A DNA stretch of 64,000 bases from Nitrospirota bacterium (GCA_963663225.1 OY760142.1:1248001-1312000); one strand, 5' to 3'; positions 4,498 through 22,190 are shown, counted from the first letter of the stretch. Made by a program: numbers and translations. Notes: generated by a model not told the origin, from the sequence alone.

Positions 4498-4572
4498 GGG
4501 CGCTTAGCTCAGCGGGAGAGCACTGCCTTCACACGGCAGGGGCCACTGGTTCAATCCCAGTAGCGCCCACCA
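4498..4572 (+). tRNA. tRNA-Val (anticodon CAC)
   Basis: Acceptor stem GGGCGCT/AGCGCCC, D arm GCTC..GAGC, anticodon arm CTGCC-TTCACAC-GGCAG, T loop GGTTCAATCC, encoded CCA. Confidence 0.97.
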
Positions 4573-4738: not shown

Positions 4739-6052
4739 CTATTTCGACCGCATCAACTGCGGCGTCTGTTCACTATTATACTGCTTTCGTGCGATCCGCT
4801 CTACCTGAGGCTTGAGATAGCTGTAAAGATCATCTATTTTCAGCGAACCATCCTGGGTCGTTACGCCCTCATTCTTGATGCCTTTGAGCAAAAAATATGT
4901 GAAGAGCCCATGGCCTTTTTCCTCATAGGTAGAGCTTATCTGATCACCCTGAGAAGCCGAGATAACCGTCATGTTCCTAGATGGCACTGAATTGTTTTGA
5001 AGGTTCATAACAAGCGGACGCGCGCCCTTGGCCAGCACCGAGCGCCCTCCCGCACCGGAGAAGCAAGAATCAAGAGCGACAATGATTTCCTTCGCGGGCA
5101 ACTTCCCAAGCGCATCATACATTCTTTTCAGCGAGTAGCCGGTTTCTGCAATAAACGTTGGATCTCCGTCATAGGGCACCAGATAAGCCCCTCCTGTCTT
5201 GGGTTCCGGTGCACCATGGCCCGAGTAGTACACAAATACGGTGCTCTCTTTCTCGACATTATTTGGGAGCCATTTTTCGAAGTATTTTACAAAGTCGACA
5301 TTGGTGGCATTTTCGTTCAGCAAGGTGACAACGTTTTCTTCAGGATACCCAAGGGCTTTGGTGAGGTAATCAACAACTAACCTCGCATCCTGGGTTGCGT
5401 AATCCGCCCTCGGCAACTTCTGGCGGTAGTTTTGAATGCCGATCACAACAGCGTAGGCTTTACTGTTCTGCTTGGTTTTTACTACCGGCACGACATCAAT
5501 ATCCGACCGCTGCATAGAAGAATCTTCACTGGATAATGAAGAAGCATCGTCATCCGCAAACTGTTCCTGCTGTTGTTTCTGCAACGTTTTTTTTCGAGAG
5601 GGAACGGCTGCGGTCTGTTCTCGTTTTTGAGCTGCTACTACTGTTTCTCCTCCGCGATTAGCGCCGTAGTCAAACAAAAGCCTTACCATCTTGGTGTTTT
5701 TCTTGCACTCCGCGATAAACAGAGGCGTCCCGCAATTACAACTTGCCGCCCATCCGTCCCCACAGCTTATTTTATTTACGTCCGCTCCTCTCTCGAGCAT
5801 AAGACGGACGATATCCAGCCGGGCATTATTGAACACCGCCTCATGCAAAGGTGACAAACCGGGCATTACACGCGCGTTAACGTCAGCGCCATTATTTAAT
5901 AAATCTTCCACTTCCTTAATATCTCCCCGTTTTGCAGCTCTGCCCAAGGAGGAAACAGTTGCACATCCTGTCGTCAACAGAAACAAAAAAACGACAAACG
6001 CCACGCCGATACAAGAAAATATTGATTTTGAAGGATTCTCTCTTTTCACCAT
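4739..6052 (-). CDS. Lipoprotein with ankyrin repeats and C-terminal caspase-like (peptidase C14) domain
   Basis: Lipobox LTTGC; ankyrin repeats (GLSPLHEAV..IVRLMLERGADVN, GTPLFIA..MVRLLFDYGAN); AYAVVIGI, catalytic YSGHG and LDSCFSG, GHGLFTYFLLKG. Confidence 0.88.
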   Translation of the reverse strand: MVKRENPSKSIFSCIGVAFVVFLFLLTTGCATVSSLGRAAKRGDIKEVEDLLNNGADVNARVMPGLSPLHEAVFNNARLDIVRLMLERGADVNKISCGDGWAASCNCGTPLFIAECKKNTKMVRLLFDYGANRGGETVVAAQKREQTAAVPSRKKTLQKQQQEQFADDDASSLSSEDSSMQRSDIDVVPVVKTKQNSKAYAVVIGIQNYRQKLPRADYATQDARLVVDYLTKALGYPEENVVTLLNENATNVDFVKYFEKWLPNNVEKESTVFVYYSGHGAPEPKTGGAYLVPYDGDPTFIAETGYSLKRMYDALGKLPAKEIIVALDSCFSGAGGRSVLAKGARPLVMNLQNNSVPSRNMTVISASQGDQISSTYEEKGHGLFTYFLLKGIKNEGVTTQDGSLKIDDLYSYLKPQVERIARKQYNSEQTPQLMRSK

Positions 6053-6438
6053 GGCCTCCAGCAAATTCAGGAAAAGCGACATACAGTATTTTTTGGTTAT
6101 TACAGAGAAAATTCAACTTGTTAAATGTATAACAGGGCCAGGGGATAAATGCAAGAAAAAAGGGTTATGATATTTTTCAGGTTCAGGCTTAATATCTGCA
6201 AGAGATTGCTGGAAGTAGCTTGTTGTACGGGGTATTTGGAGCTGAGGAATAATATTTGAACTGACAAACCAAAATAAAACTCTAGATGCTAATTCTGCAA
6301 ATGGTCTTGTTATAGTAACCTTTTTGAAACTGTCTAACTATTTTGTAACTACTTGACAAAATATATTATTAGATGATACGGTCACTTAACAGCAAAGAAA
6401 AATATCAGTCCAAACCGCAGGAACGGAAGGAGGCCGAT

Positions 6439-10442: not shown

Positions 10443-10542
10443 ATTTCTTAAAAAGTGCGGGCTGCTATTGCGTGCTTGGTTTTTAGAGAGACAATGCATG
10501 CTGGTTGTCCGTCAAACGCAACGATCCGCCAGGGGGCAGGTT

Positions 10543-11910
10543 ATGAACAGAACGCGTAAGATATCCTCAATCAGTGTGATCCTGATGGTGCTAGCGGCCG
10601 TTGTGCTCAGCGGGTGCGCCACGTCCCGCACGGTCATGATCGCGCCCATCGATTCTGCGTCAAAGAGCCTGGTTCCCGTGCCGTTTTCGGTGCACGTGGA
10701 AATTCGGGGGGTCAAGGAGGAAAATCCAAATCCAGTGACCCCGATCGCTGTAGACAAGGAATCGTTGAAGAGGATGATCGTACGGTATCTCGCGGCCCGC
10801 TCGACGTTCGACCGTGTTTTGGACGGTCTTGCGGACAGCGTGCTGAACATTGACGTCACCTACCACGTGCGGCAAGGCAATTTTTTTGACTACGTCGCGA
10901 ATTTGAAGGCGGCGTTGATTTCGAAGGACGGGCGCGATCTCGGTTCGTTTACAGGACAAAGCACTGTACGAGGCGGCATGACGAGGTTTTCCGCGAGCGC
11001 CGACGTCGAGCCGATGAACAGCGCTATGGCGCAGGCAATTGAAAATCTCTGCCTGAGGATCGAAGAGAACCGTCCGCTGATCCTGGCAAAGCTTGGTCGG
11101 CAGGATGCTCTTCCTCTGGCAGCAAAACCCCTCATCAGATCCGATGTCGATGACATCCAGATCACAAAATCGAAACCGAACCCCAGCGCGTACGCCGTTG
11201 TCATCGGCATCGAGCAGTACCGACAGAAATTACCCGCGGCGGATTTTGCCGTGAGCGACGCGCAGACCGTGACCGACTACCTGACGAAAGCCATGGGGTA
11301 TCCGGCGGAAAACATCATTACCCTCACAAATGACCGGGCGGCGTTGGGGGATTTTGTAAAATACATCGAGCGATGGCTCCCGAACAATGTAGAACATGGG
11401 AGTACCGTTTTCATCTACTATTCGGGACACGGGGCTCCCAACACCAAGACGGGGGATGCTTATCTTGTTCCCTATGACGGCGACCCGACGTTTATCGCGG
11501 AGACGGGTTATTCGCTGAAGAGAATGTACGACGCCCTGGGAAAGCTACCGGCCAAGGAAATCATTGTTGCGCTCGATTCATGCTTCTCGGGCGCGGGCGG
11601 CAGATCGGTCCTTGCGAAAGGCGCCCGGCCTCTTGTCATGAATCTCAAGCATGACGCAGTAATGGCAAAAAACATAACCATTCTTGCTGCTTCCTCGGGC
11701 GAACAGATCAGCTCGACCTATGACGAGAAGGGCCACGGTCTCTTTACCTACTTTTTGCTCAAGGGAATCAAGAATGAGAATGTCGTAAACCAGGACGGCT
11801 CGCTCGCTGTACAGGATCTGTTCAGCTACATGAGGCCTCAAGTGGAGCGGATAGCCAGAAAACAGTATAACAATGAACAGATACCGCAAATGATCGGGCC
11901 GAATAGATGA
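10543..11910 (+). CDS. Lipoprotein with unknown N-terminal domain and C-terminal caspase-like (peptidase C14) domain
   Basis: Lipobox VLSGC; YSGHG and LDSCFSG dyad; C-terminal domain closely similar to 4739-6052. Confidence 0.88.
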   Translation: MNRTRKISSISVILMVLAAVVLSGCATSRTVMIAPIDSASKSLVPVPFSVHVEIRGVKEENPNPVTPIAVDKESLKRMIVRYLAARSTFDRVLDGLADSVLNIDVTYHVRQGNFFDYVANLKAALISKDGRDLGSFTGQSTVRGGMTRFSASADVEPMNSAMAQAIENLCLRIEENRPLILAKLGRQDALPLAAKPLIRSDVDDIQITKSKPNPSAYAVVIGIEQYRQKLPAADFAVSDAQTVTDYLTKAMGYPAENIITLTNDRAALGDFVKYIERWLPNNVEHGSTVFIYYSGHGAPNTKTGDAYLVPYDGDPTFIAETGYSLKRMYDALGKLPAKEIIVALDSCFSGAGGRSVLAKGARPLVMNLKHDAVMAKNITILAASSGEQISSTYDEKGHGLFTYFLLKGIKNENVVNQDGSLAVQDLFSYMRPQVERIARKQYNNEQIPQMIGPNR

Positions 11911-15637: not shown

Positions 15638-16120
15638 ATGGAAATCAGATTGGCTCAGATAATAAAAACATGTAATAGATTCCTCATGCGAGGCATTCCC
15701 ACGGCAGTTCTTATTCTGCTTTTTGCAATGCTCACCTCCTGCGGCTCGACGTATCGGATATATCAGGGCGATCCCCTGCCCCCGGATAAAATCGGCATTC
15801 TGAAAATTCCCGGTGGCATTGATACCACGGAAACAGTCCGCATCAAAGTGGTCGACGGCGTGAGGCGGGGAAATTTCTACGGCAGCCTTTGGGATGGCAG
15901 CGGGCAGATAGAATTTATGCCGGGAAAACATTCGATTACTGTCTATGTCTGGCTTCGGGGATATCAGAGTTTTGAGCGGCGGCTGGATTTCATTGTTGAG
16001 GCCGGGAAAACGTATGTTGTCAGGCATGAACGCGTCAGTGGTATTGCAGGAACTTATTACGAACTCAAGGTTGAGGATGAGACGGTGAAAAAGGAGAAGT
16101 ATAAAATCGAGCCTTATTAG
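15638..16120 (+). CDS. Hypothetical lipoprotein
   Basis: Lipobox LTSC; beta-rich domain (IEFMPGKHSITV, VEAGKTYVV). Alternative start at 15686. Confidence 0.7.
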   Translation: MEIRLAQIIKTCNRFLMRGIPTAVLILLFAMLTSCGSTYRIYQGDPLPPDKIGILKIPGGIDTTETVRIKVVDGVRRGNFYGSLWDGSGQIEFMPGKHSITVYVWLRGYQSFERRLDFIVEAGKTYVVRHERVSGIAGTYYELKVEDETVKKEKYKIEPY

Positions 16121-16378: not shown

Positions 16379-16855
16379 ATGAAAAGCTACGCATCAATAA
16401 GGAAAGCAATTAGTGCCGATCTGCCAGCTATCGGGGAGCTCTGGAAAGAGTTCATTGATTTCCATAAAAAACGCGATCCACATTTTACCCGCGCAGCCGA
16501 CGGCCATGAGGTGTTCAAGGAGTTCATATCCGGTCACATGACGGCAGAGACATCGTGTGTTCTGGTCGCCGAGCAGGACGGTGAAGCAGTAGGTTACTGT
16601 CTTGCAACATTGGCCAAGCATCCGCCGGTGTTCGAGAATCAGGATTATGGAATGGTGTGCGATCTTGCCGTGACCGAACGGTGCCGGAGAAACGGCATCG
16701 GCGAGAGACTGTTCCGCGCGGTACAGACATGGTTTGTGGACTGCGGTATTCACCGGATCGAACTTCGGGTCGTCGTGGCCAATGAGACTTCCACGGCATT
16801 CTGGCGGAAGATGGGGCTTAATCCCTACATTACAACTGTTTTCAAAAGTATCTGA
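16379..16855 (+). CDS. GNAT family N-acetyltransferase
   Basis: IRKAISADL, VLVAEQDGEAVGY, acetyl-CoA motif DLAVTERCRRNGIG, N..STAFWRKMG. Confidence 0.9.
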   Translation: MKSYASIRKAISADLPAIGELWKEFIDFHKKRDPHFTRAADGHEVFKEFISGHMTAETSCVLVAEQDGEAVGYCLATLAKHPPVFENQDYGMVCDLAVTERCRRNGIGERLFRAVQTWFVDCGIHRIELRVVVANETSTAFWRKMGLNPYITTVFKSI

Positions 16856-16933
16856 CAGCGGAGTAATGAAGGTCAACGCTTTACTGATGGCACTGATGTC
16901 GACAATAAAGATTTGACCCCAAAGATGATAAGT

Positions 16934-17236
16934 ATTGATACCACGGAAACAGTTCGCATCAAAGTGGTCGACGGCGTGAGACGGGGGAATTTTTACGGCA
17001 GCCTCTGGGACGGCAGCGGGCAAATAGAATTTATGCCGGGAAAACATTCGATCATTGTCTATGTCTGGCTTCAGGGGTATCAGAGTTTTGAGCGGAGGCT
17101 GGATTTTACAGTTGAGGCAGGAAAAACCTATGTTGTCAGGCATGAACGCGTCAGCGGTATTGCAGGAACTTTTTACGAACTCAAGGTTGAGGATGAGACG
17201 GTGAAAAAGGAGAAGTATAATATAGAGGCTTACTAG
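16934..17236 (+). pseudogene. 5'-truncated duplicate of lipoprotein gene 15638-16120
   Basis: Near-identical to 15818-16120 (IDTTETVRIKVVDG...), without signal peptide or lipobox. Confidence 0.85.
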
Positions 17237-17380: not shown

Positions 17381-17495
17381 AACTAAAGTGATTTGCTTTT
17401 TGGTCGAAAAGCAAGTTGCTATAAAATTAAGAGAACAAGTGGGACTGAACGTCCCGCTAGGTTGCGTGAGAATACTAAAATAAAGATTTGACACT
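17381..17495. repeat. Diverged ~120-nt spacer, copy B
   Basis: Homologous to 16240-16357; ends in AATAAAGATTTGAC, identical to 16904-16917. Confidence 0.7.
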
Positions 17496-17507: not shown

Positions 17508-17918
17508 TCATGTCTGATCCTGTAAGGTTCTATCTATTCGTTTGATACAGGCCTCGAAATTATTTTTGAGTTCATGCTGCCATAGACGGATAACTTTCCA
17601 GCCCTGTGCACGAAGTCTTCGGTGGTTCCTGGTGTCCCGTTTCCGATTTTGCGATATTTTCTTTTTCCAAAAGTCCGACAGCTTGTGTTCCCATAATGGG
17701 AATCGGTATCCATGCCAGAAATCACCATCCACAAATACTATCACACGGTTCTTTTTGAATACGATATCTGGTTTGCCTGGTAAGCGCTTGTCATGCTTCC
17801 TAAACCGTAATCCTTTTTTATGAAGAGCCGTTCTCACGCGTAATTCCAAGCTGGTGTCCTTCCCCTTAATACGGGACATACAGTAGCTGCGCTGTTTTTT
17901 GGTCAGATTATCCGGCAT
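17508..17918 (-). CDS. vsr: Very short patch repair endonuclease
   Basis: D.LT..QRSYCMSRIKGKDT, LPGKPDIV, VFVDGDFWHG, FWKKKI..NRKRD, GWKVIRLW. Confidence 0.95.
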   Translation of the reverse strand: MPDNLTKKQRSYCMSRIKGKDTSLELRVRTALHKKGLRFRKHDKRLPGKPDIVFKKNRVIVFVDGDFWHGYRFPLWEHKLSDFWKKKISQNRKRDTRNHRRLRAQGWKVIRLWQHELKNNFEACIKRIDRTLQDQT

Positions 17919-20853
17919 TATCCTGTCTTTGGAACTGGCTGAATATTCGAACCATCGCCCGCTGGTTGGGTAAGTACAGGGCAGGCGGTAATGTTTTCAG
18001 AAGTTCGAAGTTCTGTGGTTCTCGCGAGCACAGCTGTTTGAAGTCGCAGTTCGCACATTTATCGGGATGCGGCCGCATCGGAAAATCAGCGTTGAGAATA
18101 CCCTGTACTGCCCATTCTATGTTCGCGAGGGCGGCATCGACGGCCTCGGACGTTATCGGTATCTCGATTCGCTTGTTGTCTTTCAAGAGATGTACACTGC
18201 CCGTCTTGGCATTCTGACCGATGACTTGATCCGCTGCGCTCGCATACAATTGAACTTGCAAGGAGAGCTCGGTCCAGTCGAGTTTGGCGTTTGTTTCGGG
18301 TGTCTCGCCGCCTTCCATCGCCTTGAAGTCGATGATCTCGGCGTCGAGGATGTTCCCGCTCTGATCTTCACGGAGCAACAAATCAATCGCGCCAGAGATC
18401 ACGCAATTTGATGCTGGTATCTCGAAAGCTACCTCAACTTGCCTTTCCCGCTCGAAGTCGGCACCGTACGAGCCCACGTAGTCCTGAGTAATTTCGACAG
18501 CCCGGTTCTTTGCTTTCTCGTACGCGCCTGGATTATTAACTGGATCGCGGCTCTCAGGAACATGCTTCAAGTGAAAAGTATTTTGTATGACCTGTTCAAT
18601 TTCGTCCGCACGAGGCGGTGCTTGGGGAAACAGTTCATGTAACTTTTGGATGGATGTATGAACCGTCTGTCCAAAACCGAACATTTCCGGAATGGCAGGA
18701 TTAAGACCATACCGTTTCCGAAATTGATAGCCCTTTGGGCACTGCAGGTAGTATTTGATTTCAGTGAAACTTGTTGGATAGTCGGCATCCTCGACTCTGC
18801 GACGAGGTGTAGTCGGAACGAGCCCTAGAGGAAGTCCTGCGGGGTCTTTAACAATCGCAGGGTGCAATGCGAACCGAAGCGCAAAGATCGATTGTGGTCT
18901 GGGTTTCTTTCCTTGCGGCAATTGTGCAGCGCCGGTTATGTAAAGATACCGTTCAGCGCGCGTGGCAGCCGTGTAGAAAAGTCTTATTTGCTCATTCTCA
19001 GTACTCTGATAAGCCCCACGGTTGACTGCCGGAGCCATGACGCCAGCTGGCAGCCATCCGGAATAGCTACTACGTTTTTTCGGGAACCGCTGAGCTTCCA
19101 CGTCCACGACGAATACACATGGAAACTCGAGTCCCTTCATTTTATGAACAGTCGATACTGTTACTGTATCCGGCCGTTGTAACAGATCATCAGTAGATAC
19201 ATCGTATCCTATTTCGGCGGCATTTTGCAAAAAATTGAGGACTTCCGAGAAGCGAAACGTAGAATCGACACTCATGTACACAGTTTCGACGTCCAAAATC
19301 ATGCGGCTGAATAGCCCTATATCCCGCATCACATCGTCGCCGAAGTTCGTCCTGGCAATATTAAACGCCTCTAACAAATCGTAAACGAGCTGTTGCGGAT
19401 AGAGCCGAATCCTCGTTGATCCTTGGGGTCGATGAATCTTACGATGCCAATCGGTAAGAATACGGATTACTGCATTAATGTCCGAGTCGGGAAACGCGGG
19501 ACGTACTTGGGCGTTGAAATGCTGCTGCACGGTGTTCCGGTCGAGAAACGTTTGCCGGAGTAGCTCAAAAGTGCCACGAAGTACTGCTATCTGCGGACGG
19601 TCAAATGGGCCGCCTCCTGATTCCAAACTATAGGGAAGTCCTAAATCACCTAAAGCTCCGGTGAACGCACTGTGCCTTGGAAAACCATTTTGTTCTGGCT
19701 CTCGTGTGGACTGCATTAATACAGCAAAATCAGCCGGGGTTAAGCCCCTGCTCTGTCCATTGTCGTTGTAGGCAGTGCCAAGTAGATCATTGATCTTTCT
19801 TGCTACCCAGTCAGCCTCGGTTGGACGGTCTGGAAACCACAGCACCCGAGTATCCTGAGGTGCGATATTAGCAACCGCGGATGGGTTCTTTGGAAACCGG
19901 CTCGGCCCCAGCATTGCCACTGCAAATGCATCCGATGCCTGCACGATCGGCTCAGTACTTCGAAAATTTTCGGACAATGTATGTACACTACAGCTCGGAT
20001 ACCGTTGCTGAAATCCTAGTATGTTTGTAACATCCGCCCCACGCCAAGCATATATAGACTGATCGTCGTCCCCGACTACAAAGAGGGTCTGAGAGCGACT
20101 GTGCAGAAGTCGGATTAGCTCTTCTTGACAAGGATTGACATCTTGGTATTCGTCTACCATGAGATGCCGCAGCAGGCCGACCCCTTTTTCAACACCCCGT
20201 GAATTGCTACGGATCGCCTCAACCACGTTTCTGATCATGAGGGAAAAATCGATATATTGGTCCGCCCGGAGTCCATCCCGAATGGCTGTAAGTAACTCAC
20301 CTATCTCCGCGTCCTCTGCAGCGATTGCATTGAAGTCTAATAGCTCATCATTCGCGGTTTTCCATGCATCAGACGCCTGTTTGATCGTGTCGAAGTAGCT
20401 ACCCTCTTTATTTGGCCCTGCTCCTTTTGCTCGTCTGCGTAGCGGTTTAAGTTTTAATGCGCCGAATCGTGAGATCATGTACAGCTTCAGACGGTTCTCG
20501 TCCAAGACATCGAACTGACGATACGTTGCATCCATGTCGCCTAAGACTCTTTGGCAGTAAGCATGAATTGTCCCGATGAACATCGCACCCATGACCGTTG
20601 GGTCGATCCCTGCCTTAGTTAGGGCTTGAGAAACGCGCCGCTTGATTGTTTCTGCCGCCTTTTCAGTAAATGTGAAGGCTACGATGCTATCAGGAGACTG
20701 TCCCTCGGCTAAGAGCCTCGCTATCCTATATGCCAGCGTTCTTGACTTCCCTGATCCTGCGCAAGCCAGACACAATACTTCTCTCACAGGATCAACTGCT
20801 GCGTCATATTGCTCTGGTGTAAGTTCCGCTCTCAATACCTGATCGATGTCCAT
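17908..20853 (-). CDS. UvrD/PcrA-family SF1 helicase fused to C-terminal PD-(D/E)XK (RecB/AddB-like) nuclease
   Basis: AGSGKS, FTFTEKAA, VDEYQD, VGDDDQSIYAWRGA, NFRS, TVHKMKGLEF, RLFYTAATRA; nuclease YLQCP, GAIDLL, IIDFK, QVQLYA, CANCDFKQLC. Confidence 0.92.
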   Translation of the reverse strand: MDIDQVLRAELTPEQYDAAVDPVREVLCLACAGSGKSRTLAYRIARLLAEGQSPDSIVAFTFTEKAAETIKRRVSQALTKAGIDPTVMGAMFIGTIHAYCQRVLGDMDATYRQFDVLDENRLKLYMISRFGALKLKPLRRRAKGAGPNKEGSYFDTIKQASDAWKTANDELLDFNAIAAEDAEIGELLTAIRDGLRADQYIDFSLMIRNVVEAIRSNSRGVEKGVGLLRHLMVDEYQDVNPCQEELIRLLHSRSQTLFVVGDDDQSIYAWRGADVTNILGFQQRYPSCSVHTLSENFRSTEPIVQASDAFAVAMLGPSRFPKNPSAVANIAPQDTRVLWFPDRPTEADWVARKINDLLGTAYNDNGQSRGLTPADFAVLMQSTREPEQNGFPRHSAFTGALGDLGLPYSLESGGGPFDRPQIAVLRGTFELLRQTFLDRNTVQQHFNAQVRPAFPDSDINAVIRILTDWHRKIHRPQGSTRIRLYPQQLVYDLLEAFNIARTNFGDDVMRDIGLFSRMILDVETVYMSVDSTFRFSEVLNFLQNAAEIGYDVSTDDLLQRPDTVTVSTVHKMKGLEFPCVFVVDVEAQRFPKKRSSYSGWLPAGVMAPAVNRGAYQSTENEQIRLFYTAATRAERYLYITGAAQLPQGKKPRPQSIFALRFALHPAIVKDPAGLPLGLVPTTPRRRVEDADYPTSFTEIKYYLQCPKGYQFRKRYGLNPAIPEMFGFGQTVHTSIQKLHELFPQAPPRADEIEQVIQNTFHLKHVPESRDPVNNPGAYEKAKNRAVEITQDYVGSYGADFERERQVEVAFEIPASNCVISGAIDLLLREDQSGNILDAEIIDFKAMEGGETPETNAKLDWTELSLQVQLYASAADQVIGQNAKTGSVHLLKDNKRIEIPITSEAVDAALANIEWAVQGILNADFPMRPHPDKCANCDFKQLCSREPQNFELLKTLPPALYLPNQRAMVRIFSQFQRQDNAG

Positions 20854-20877
20854 TGCGTTCTGACCTCATGCTGTTAC

Positions 20878-21930
20878 TTATACTCTGTTAACATTCAGCA
20901 AGCCGCGTCTAATACATCTTCCATGAGCAGCAATCATCGGAGGTGGCAAGGCATTCCCTATCATCAATGCCACCGCTGATTTGCTCTCTGCTATTGGGAA
21001 TTTGTATCGGGATGGGAATCCCTGTAGAAGTGCAGCTTCGCGCATTGTGATCGCTCTATTCTCTTTTGGGTGAATGAAGCGACCCTTTGATGGATTGAAG
21101 CATCCGCTGGTGATCGTGGGGGCGACATCGTCCCAGGCCATGCGCCCGTAGACGTCCTTGAACCCAGAACATCGCTTATGACATTTTAGTTGAAATCTCT
21201 TCGGTAAATCCGTGCGGCTTCCGCCGTTTCTCGGTACTCGCCGTATAATATCCATAACCCTAGGCGTACGATGCTCCGGCATATCGTGCAGGCGGTCTCC
21301 ACTTTTACCCGCAGCCGGTAGCTTCCCGATAGCATCCCTGACTGTCCGCAGTCTGTTAGTTTTCGCTGCGAAGGGTATCTCAACGCCCATACCGGCAAGA
21401 TAAATCAACCTGCGTCTTCGCTGCGGGACACGGTAATCCTTGGCATTCAGGACACGGTGGCCCCCGAAATATCCGAGTTTCTTCATTGCTCTACTAAATG
21501 TAGCAAACCGTTTATCATCACCAAGGCCAGGTACATTTTCCAGCATTATAGCTCGTGGACGGAGGATCTCTACGAACCGTTGAAATTCAAGTAATAGGTC
21601 ATTCCGCGAATCAATGATCTTGAGCGCTCCATTGAGTGTCCTCAATGTAGAGAAACCTTGACAAGGCGGGCATCCAGCCAGGAGGTCCAGCTCTCCCTTT
21701 TTCAGTCCGAGATCAGCGAGTAAGCGTCTCGGGCTAAGTCGCCTGATGTCCTTTTCCCACACCATGACATTGCGATGATTTGCCTTATAGGTCATCATGG
21801 CAAGAGGATCGATATCAACAGCACCCAACACGCGAAAGCCAGCATTTTTGAGTCCGACCGTAGTTCCACCGCACCCGCAGAAAAGGTCAATAGCCGACAG
21901 TTTTTTCTTATTTGCTTTCTTGCTCTTCAT
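20878..21930 (-). CDS. dcm: DNA (cytosine-5)-methyltransferase
   Basis: Motif I DLFCGCGG, IV PPCQGFS, VI ENV, VIII PQRRRR, IX REAALLQGFP, X GNALPP. Confidence 0.95.
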   Translation of the reverse strand: MKSKKANKKKLSAIDLFCGCGGTTVGLKNAGFRVLGAVDIDPLAMMTYKANHRNVMVWEKDIRRLSPRRLLADLGLKKGELDLLAGCPPCQGFSTLRTLNGALKIIDSRNDLLLEFQRFVEILRPRAIMLENVPGLGDDKRFATFSRAMKKLGYFGGHRVLNAKDYRVPQRRRRLIYLAGMGVEIPFAAKTNRLRTVRDAIGKLPAAGKSGDRLHDMPEHRTPRVMDIIRRVPRNGGSRTDLPKRFQLKCHKRCSGFKDVYGRMAWDDVAPTITSGCFNPSKGRFIHPKENRAITMREAALLQGFPSRYKFPIAESKSAVALMIGNALPPPMIAAHGRCIRRGLLNVNRV

Positions 21931-22073
21931 CTTTTTGCAATAATGGGTAGGATATGTACGATGTGATGGGAAAATCTTCAAAGGTGAAGTTCCTCCCAGA
22001 TGTGATGAGAATACTATGCTTTTGCGAAAGAAGCAAGGACTTTTTCTTAATATTTAAGTTGGTTTTCCGCCTG

Positions 22074-22089
22074 TAAGCACTAGTGCTTA
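22074..22089. promoter_or_regulatory. Perfect 16-bp palindrome, putative operator
   Basis: TAAGCACTAGTGCTTA between divergent genes, just upstream of TTGATT-18-TATAAT (22104-22133). Confidence 0.5.
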
Positions 22090-22190
22090 ATCAAAACAAG
22101 AACTTGATTGAAATGTGAAAACAAGGGTATAATCTTTTGGCAGTTTAACATCATGCTGCAAGTTTTCAGCGTTTACAGGGAGGGCCTATT

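Follow-up and report, generated by a model that had tools for sequence, protein, structure and literature searches.

C5 methylation is known as a self mark for restriction that burns nucleoside triphosphates in the CglI/NgoAVII and LlaJI/BsuMI systems, whose effectors are a superfamily 2 (SF2) helicase with a phospholipase D (PLD) nuclease, or McrBC-like GTPases, and we know of no enzyme of the UvrD/RecB type in any of them. A 64,000-nucleotide stretch of DNA from a Nitrospirota bacterium (GCA_963663225.1 OY760142.1:1248001-1312000; hereafter the window) carries a cassette in which a helicase-nuclease of the latter type is encoded between a C5 cytosine methyltransferase and a Vsr mismatch endonuclease. 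We propose that the three genes form a self-contained, mobile, ATP-dependent, restriction-modification (RM)-like defence cassette with the AddA-like helicase-nuclease as sole effector, a proposal that we consider about evenly balanced between right and wrong.

The closest described relatives are the UvrD-Cas4-like fusions of 'Phylogenomics of Cas4 family nucleases' (Hudaiberdiev et al. 2017; PMC5704561). The parts of that study devoted to these fusions describe a monophyletic group found in two conserved contexts, namely type III Mod/Res genes, the commonest setting for the wider family, and Dcm, with Vsr in several loci; the fusions are predicted to be defence components, probably ancillary ones, and redundancy with RecB in repair-like roles is suggested. 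The same parts give these loci one paragraph and one figure panel, and discuss the Dcm setting apart from the type III one. Judged by its sequence, the window locus is a member of this group, with the same superfamily 1 (SF1) UvrD-like helicase joined to a PF12705 nuclease, a Dcm neighbour and the Vsr that often accompanies it. The gene association has been in print since 2017 as a prediction, and the gene set is not an undescribed one, those parts of PMC5704561 already covering UvrD-Cas4 fusions beside Dcm and Vsr. New here are the counting of the methylase linkage (53/56 informative loci), the occurrence of both contexts together in some loci, and the observation of a minimal pair travelling alone.

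The three genes lie on the minus strand at positions 17508-21981 and are tightly packed, an arrangement that the open reading frame (ORF) listing of the window reproduced as first described. The methylase gene (20878-21981) is separated by 24 nt (20854-20877) from that of the 981-aa helicase-nuclease (17908-20853, ATG start), which in turn overlaps the gene for the 136-aa very-short-patch T:G mismatch endonuclease Vsr (17508-17918, ATG start) by 11 nt (17908-17918). While the genes themselves stand as originally outlined, the end of the feature had been placed at 21930, an ATG that would yield a methylase of 350 aa; the start is probably the TTG at 21981, giving 367 aa and moving the end accordingly, because a GGAGGA sequence (21991-21996) lies 9 nt ahead of this TTG and no such site precedes the ATG. 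The methylase matches PF00145 (DNA_methylase, 3e-57, Pfam), TIGR00675 (dcm, 7e-47, NCBIfam) and the PADLOC model MTase_II (1.6e-81), contains GCPPCQ and ENV motifs, and has a presumed target-recognition region, between motifs VIII and IX, that is conserved over 54 related loci. Its nearest solved sequences are eukaryotic DNMT1 catalytic domains (7e-32), which rank ahead of bacterial M.HaeIII and M.HhaI, and unnamed bacterial methylases are also among the nearest. Vsr matches PF03852 (1e-29) and, at 124.7 bits against TIGR00632, exceeds the curated NCBIfam cut-off of 97.85, as expected of a regular Vsr.

The evidence that carries the proposal is comparative. A scan of species-representative genomes matched at least 600 stretches, at least 577 of them encoding a relative of the helicase-nuclease, and the best 80 were fetched with their flanks (locus numbers are given below in brackets). 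Linkage was counted in the 56 loci that have a full helicase gene with 1300 bp or more of flank to either side, a neighbour being a gene within 1.5 kb. A C5-methyltransferase neighbour is present in 53 of these, upstream on the same strand in 38, upstream and divergent in 4, downstream on the same strand in 7, downstream and convergent in 3, and overlapping an extended ORF call for the helicase in 1. Recurrence of the same neighbours in 53 of the 56 informative related loci puts the arrangement far beyond chance, and the pairwise identities of helicase and methylase are correlated (Spearman 0.70, 1431 pairs). Vsr occurs in 32/56 loci and an HhH-GPD glycosylase in 5/56, never both within 1.5 kb, and there is no case among the 56 of Vsr without the methylase. 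In a Vsr-less locus (L034), a UDG-family gene adjoins the methylase; deamination-repair genes of three unrelated folds (Vsr, HhH-GPD and UDG-family) thereby alternate beside it.

All-against-all clustering of the 3964 ORFs of the 80 loci returned only helicase, methylase and Vsr as recurrent genes, with no fourth, and no AddB- or AdnA-like partner was present among the recurrent neighbours. Nor did a conserved gene for a small site-specific endonuclease, as expected beside the methylase in classical type II RM with Vsr, emerge from the clustering, the recurrence test being blind to a non-conserved endonuclease. Both the linkage of homologues to a C5-methyltransferase, in many gene orders, and the lack of an AddB/AdnA-type partner were thus borne out. 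These results support a functional tie between the helicase-nuclease and the C5-methyltransferase. The methylase was not seen in 10 of the 80 loci, of which five (L005, L017, L019, L049 and L063) have less than 1300 bp upstream and two (L024 and L025) retain under 300 bp on the downstream side. The latter two (L024:3-5487 and L025:3946-9925, one from a record titled as an archaeal metagenome-assembled genome (MAG)) encode a helicase-nuclease variant of 1009 aa; ahead of its gene lie a CotH-kinase gene and an ORF of 316 aa with no Pfam match. At another methylase-less locus (L061:3692-10765), the helicase-nuclease is split into two ORFs about 650 nt apart, and a gene for an AspBHI-like (5-methylcytosine (5mC)-dependent) HNH endonuclease lies upstream.

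In the protein databases, the 120 best clusters are 965-995 aa long, share 69-85% identity over the full length and are labelled at most 'ATP-dependent helicase' or 'PcrA'. An exhaustive profile-free search gave 3245 representatives at E <=1e-30, with only a few full-length 50%-identity clusters near the query followed by a broad shell at about 30% identity. Fusions of methylase and helicase-nuclease were seen neither in the 9 longer representatives scanned, which include one PIF1, one helix-turn-helix (HTH) and one rve fusion, nor in the 4 matches of at least 1718 residues, which is weak evidence. In one relative (P0188, 1419 aa, about 33% identity), the UvrD-nuclease is extended at its N terminus by a PIF1-like (RecD-type) helicase, so that a single chain combines two motors of opposite polarity with a nuclease.

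The helicase core of the window protein (residues 1-645, domains 1A/1B/2A/2B; 18919-20853) comprises a UvrD-helicase match (PF00580, 3e-55, residues 11-286) and UvrD_C out to residue 641, and the nuclease domain (residues about 690-945; 18019-18786) matches PDDEXK_1 (PF12705, 6e-23, residues 694-942) and Cas_Cas4 (6e-7, residues 862-942). Every motif quoted in the preliminary description was located in the translations, including PCQ in the methylase, the Walker A sequence AGSGKS (residues 32-37) and the nuclease motifs GAIDLL, IIDFK and QVQLY; motif II reads DEYQD (234-238), and the four cysteines are arranged as C705-P and C933-x2-C936-x5-C942, a site of the Cas4/AddB type that by analogy probably binds a 4Fe-4S cluster. 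Across 72 relatives with identities down to about 25%, K36, D234, E235, Q265, R298, R632, D824, K844, Q866, C705 and C942 are invariant, and D842, Y870, C933 and C936 are retained in at least 90%, a set that takes in Walker A, motif II and the arginine fingers of the helicase together with the D/D/K/Q/Y residues of the nuclease and the four cysteines. An AlphaFold (AF2) model built on these 72 relatives (predicted local distance difference test (pLDDT) 90.4, predicted template modelling score (pTM) 0.91) resolves the whole chain into domains 1A/1B/2A/2B, followed by a linker, the nuclease and a short tail. Its best whole-chain Foldseek match is AddA of AddAB (4cej_A, E 5.6e-35); the motor resembles UvrD, PcrA and Rep, further matches include RecB and AdnB, and identity to AddAB/RecBCD/AdnAB-type enzymes in the structural alignments is 13-19%. 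The tail (residues 949-981; 17911-18009) is conserved in the close clade, whereas over 70% of the relatives at about 30% identity have a gap there; the comparison with those relatives also found three small inserts in the close clade. The tail is, on alignment evidence, specific to the methylase-linked clade. A complex prediction for the methylase with residues 332-981 of the helicase-nuclease, run without controls, scored 0.00 against a mark of 0.32, which speaks neither for nor against binding.

Like the window protein, the enzymes of the AddAB/RecBCD/AdnAB group carry an SF1A motor and a C-terminal RecB-family nuclease in one chain, and AddB and Cas4 have a similar four-cysteine site. Those enzymes, however, have an obligate second subunit (AddB, AdnA, or RecC/RecD), whereas the cassette contains none; the window protein unites motor and cysteine-bearing nuclease in one chain and is the product of a methylase-linked, mobile gene. 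Type III RM (Mod plus Res, e.g., EcoP15I) similarly combines a methylase with an ATP-dependent helicase-nuclease bearing a PD-(D/E)XK domain, and its Mod provides target recognition, which is one way in which the window system could work. However, Res belongs to SF2 and Mod is a methylase of the N6-adenine (or N4) kind, in contrast with the SF1 UvrD-type motor and PF00145 C5-methylase found here. Class 2 DISARM carries the C5-methylase DrmMII, whose PADLOC models the window methylase matches less strongly (1.7e-43) than the generic type II model (1.6e-81), and requires DrmA, DrmB (DUF1998) and DrmE, none of which is in the window and which stand beside the pair only in two related loci (L067 and L072). 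Gabija also has a UvrD-type helicase in GajB, to whose models the window protein is matched over the motor only, but needs the OLD-type nuclease GajA next to it, and no GajA is present in the window. Membership in Gabija, DISARM, type I or type III RM, or AddAB was rejected on these grounds of missing partner genes or mismatched enzyme classes, and the earlier statement that the gene set resembles none of DISARM, Gabija and type I/III RM is upheld, since the window holds none of their partner genes. A methylation-dependent (type IV) reading was rejected because the helicase-nuclease travels with the methylase. ARMADA (PMC12458937 and PMC13463889) combines a GajB-like UvrD helicase with nuclease domains of the Vsr type, but its gene set is another one. 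In PADLOC-DB 2.0 the helicase-nuclease has only partial, generic matches, to GajB and reverse transcriptase (RT)-associated helicase models, and the methylase matches MTase_II.

The distribution of the relatives indicates mobility. Loci at 70-80% identity are found in records whose titles name Omnitrophota, Chloroflexota, Aminicenantes, Latescibacterota, Spirochaetota, Deltaproteobacteria, Nitrospirales, Planctomycetota, Gammaproteobacteria, Acidobacteriota and Bacteroidota, at least 10 phyla in all, and relatives at 51-60% occur in two archaeal MAGs. In a FastTree phylogeny of 42 helicase-nucleases the phyla are mixed, with 21 label changes for 13 groups, and the well-supported clade of the window protein has 10 members from at least 5 phyla. 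By this phylogenetic pattern, the cassette is horizontally mobile between phyla and into archaea.

Context was classed in 76 loci from Pfam matches to flanking ORFs of 150 aa or longer, at most the two nearest per side, and the choice of families counted as defence-linked was our own. A clear RM, BREX, DISARM, Abi or type IV gene is nearby in 25 loci; a further 16 are flanked by families often seen in defence islands (HerA, OLD-type AAA_15/21, MORC-like GHKL, NOV_C and others); in 6 others the classed genes are solely those of integrases, transposases, resolvases or relaxases; and 29, the window locus among them, have no defence or mobility genes of these classes. The clear-defence neighbours include GmrSD, type I HsdR, type ISP, type III Mod plus Res, DISARM-like DrmE/DrmA/DrmB, AspBHI-like type IV, Mrr, AbiEi, EcoO109I and Z1/DUF4420. 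In 7 loci (L001-L004, L016, L026 and L050), BrxL, plus PglZ where the contig reaches it, lies directly upstream of the methylase; BrxL is >90% identical between records of different phyla, and GmrSD follows vsr in two of the seven (L002 and L004). It appears from these shared neighbours that a BREX-plus-cassette island moves as one unit. Within the Bacillota branch, the pair adjoins DISARM-like genes (DrmE_C, a large helicase and DUF1998/MZB) in two loci (L067:11137-16844 and L072:206-5732) and a type III Mod plus Res pair follows the C5-methylase in four (L071, L073, L074 and L077), with Vsr at the far end. A defence-island location is frequent among the relatives, but the window's own locus sits among housekeeping genes instead.

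In the mechanism that we favour, the C5-methyltransferase would mark host DNA at one motif, and the 3'-5' SF1A motor of the helicase-nuclease would feed a C-terminal Cas4-type nuclease, unwinding and degrading unmarked DNA at the expense of ATP. Because the helicase-nuclease is built like AddA and RecB, degradation is proposed to be processive and to start at an end, nick or gap, in contrast to cleavage at a site. Vsr would stand outside the attack and repair the T:G mismatches that arise in the host by deamination of 5mC, a role in which an HhH-GPD or UDG-family glycosylase may substitute at other loci. We infer in this way that unmethylated DNA is degraded, with 5mC as the self mark. Methylation could be sensed by the methylase acting as a specificity subunit, like Mod for Res in type III systems, or by the motor itself on the strand that it translocates. 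A stronger version, which is possible although we lean against it, is that the cassette represents a new type of RM in which a single AddA-like SF1 helicase/Fe-S nuclease is the whole restriction arm, with the methylase as its specificity subunit or with a motor that halts at 5mC as a Chi-like 'self' signal; its methylation sensing would be unprecedented, because the helicase-nuclease is without a reader domain. The methylase linkage, the lack of any other partner, the alternating repair enzymes, the horizontal spread and the neighbours fit the RM-like reading, and PMC5704561 arrived at a defence prediction on the basis of other genomes.

The helicase-nuclease gene lies between those of the methylase and Vsr, and its 11-nt overlap hints at coupled translation; this could also mean that the enzyme works in repair downstream of Vsr or a glycosylase, loading where a deaminated 5mC has left a nick or abasic site, or onto a trapped methylase-DNA adduct, and unwinding and removing the damaged strand for polymerase fill-in. 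The closest solved relatives (UvrD, PcrA, AddA, RecB and AdnB) are repair enzymes, Vsr or HhH-GPD lies within 1.5 kb in 37/56 loci, a UDG-family gene is present in L034, and intact enzymes without a methylase (L030, L057 and L076) would be harmless. Very-short-patch repair in E. coli is not known to need UvrD. What tells against this explanation is that the gene is linked to the methylase (53/56) and not to the mismatch enzyme: in 19/56 loci both Vsr and HhH-GPD are absent within 1.5 kb, and no Vsr occurs without the methylase. Hopping between phyla together with the methylase, and BREX, DISARM and type I, III and IV neighbours, would likewise be unexpected for a repair accessory, and although a redundancy with RecB in repair-like roles has been suggested in the passages on these fusions in PMC5704561, we regard a repair function as unlikely. 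A direct part for Vsr in attack, in which it would nick foreign DNA and the helicase-nuclease would enter at the nick, so that all three genes take part, seems very improbable. It would suit the tight helicase/vsr overlap, and Vsr-type nuclease domains are predicted effectors in ARMADA and Druantia-like systems in the parts of PMC12458937 and PMC13463889 concerned with them, but 24/56 loci have no Vsr within 1.5 kb, glycosylases substitute in some, and the window protein is a regular Vsr above the NCBI curated cut-off.

It is also conceivable that the helicase-nuclease enlarges breaks made by another restriction system, as RecBCD does after type I-III cleavage, in which case the other nuclease would be unlinked in the Nitrospirota genome or the pair would be a remnant. 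An AddA-like enzyme requires an end made by something else, and the pair does occur with such systems, namely with type III Mod plus Res after the methylase (L071, L073, L074 and L077), flanked by DrmE/DrmA/DrmB (L067 and L072), and with BrxL and PglZ directly upstream in 7 loci. In PMC5704561, too, the wider family is found most often with type III Mod/Res, and its role is put forward as ancillary. Against this, no other gene recurs beside the pair in the window's clade, where flanks are diverse; an enzyme of this kind would have no need of its own tightly linked methylase; and there is no other restriction gene within the 64-kb window. Overall, an ancillary role strikes us as improbable.

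Several observations weigh against the RM-like reading itself. AddA/RecB-type enzymes need a DNA end, and the RM-like reading does not account for the access of such an enzyme to a circular or unmethylated target. Pfam and the structure model and search revealed no recognisable sequence- or methyl-reading domain in the helicase-nuclease. Intact helicase-nucleases without a methylase in the flanks are encoded at L030 and L057, and at L076:6483-9919 the methylase has lost its 5' part, with about 118-160 of its last residues left, while the adjacent helicase-nuclease keeps every catalytic residue; the helicase-nuclease is therefore not always lethal without a methylase neighbour, unless a second methylase is present elsewhere in the genome. 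Gene decay gave no clear sign of the restriction gene dying while the methylase stays, with about 5 loci having a broken helicase and a whole methylase vs 3 in reverse, in a set in which many loci come from long-read MAGs and frameshifts may be assembly errors. The position of the pair beside complete type III or DISARM-like sets in the Bacillota branch fits an ancillary role. No close relative was found among PLSDB plasmids (2 distant matches in 72,556 records) or in a phage collection, where only the helicase half matches, and no other restriction or defence genes were found in the window, where the locus lies among housekeeping genes and genes of unknown function. Full-text searches of the literature yielded no experimental study of the cassette and no named system. 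The RM-like reading put forward in the preliminary description is thus partly supported and is the best available: comparative linkage, the lack of a partner and mobility stand behind it, while the missing reader domain, the 3/56 loci without an intact methylase and the housekeeping setting do not.

The remainder of the window is ordinary chromosome, with genes for ValRS, GuaA, UvrA, FtsH, ATP synthase, chemotaxis and flagella. An AT-rich codon choice had been noted for the cassette, and this holds at third codon positions (GC content 0.49-0.51 vs a mean of 0.618, sd 0.06, in the 33 window ORFs of at least 300 aa, about 2 sd lower) and only weakly in bulk GC (0.497 vs 0.516 for the window), a modest sign of foreign codon usage that adds to the case for mobility. 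The upstream intergenic region (21982-22190) is shared with a divergent DUF676 esterase gene and contains the putative ribosome-binding site and a perfect 10-bp palindrome (22077-22086), which may be an operator, although no controller-protein gene is present; promoter-like matches there are no more frequent than expected from shuffled sequence. A weak terminator-like hairpin on the minus strand (17441-17455), 53 nt past the vsr stop, is a possible operon end, and the number of terminator-like sites in the region is not above chance (7 vs 5.2 expected from shuffles). Small ORFs near the cassette have no Pfam match and do not recur among the related loci. No tRNA or integrase adjoins the cassette in the window, whose sole tRNA is at 4498, and no flanking repeats bracket it as element ends. 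The only repeat found, a 300-nt direct repeat of 92% identity (15818-16117 and 16934-17233), brackets a neighbouring GNAT acetyltransferase gene (16379-16855); its copies are the 3' parts of plus-strand ORFs at 15638-16120 and 16913-17236, both without a Pfam match, with roughly 270 nt between the end of the second copy and the vsr stop. A local duplication or an insertion scar could account for the repeat. Two caspase-like (Peptidase_C14) proteins are also encoded in the window, at 4742-6082 on the minus strand, where ankyrin repeats are present as well, and at 10468-11907 on the plus strand.

If the methylase and helicase-nuclease restrict DNA alone, an SF1/RecB-type motor-nuclease would join the restriction arms, which to our knowledge have so far been SF2 motors, McrBC-type GTPases or plain endonucleases, and the mechanistic question posed would be how an end-processing enzyme tells 5mC-marked self DNA. 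At 4.5 kb, the cassette is compact enough for a direct bench test. Because the family is widespread, with at least 577 stretches in species-representative genomes, yet labelled generically and missed by the PADLOC 2023 models, such a test would reclassify many genes.

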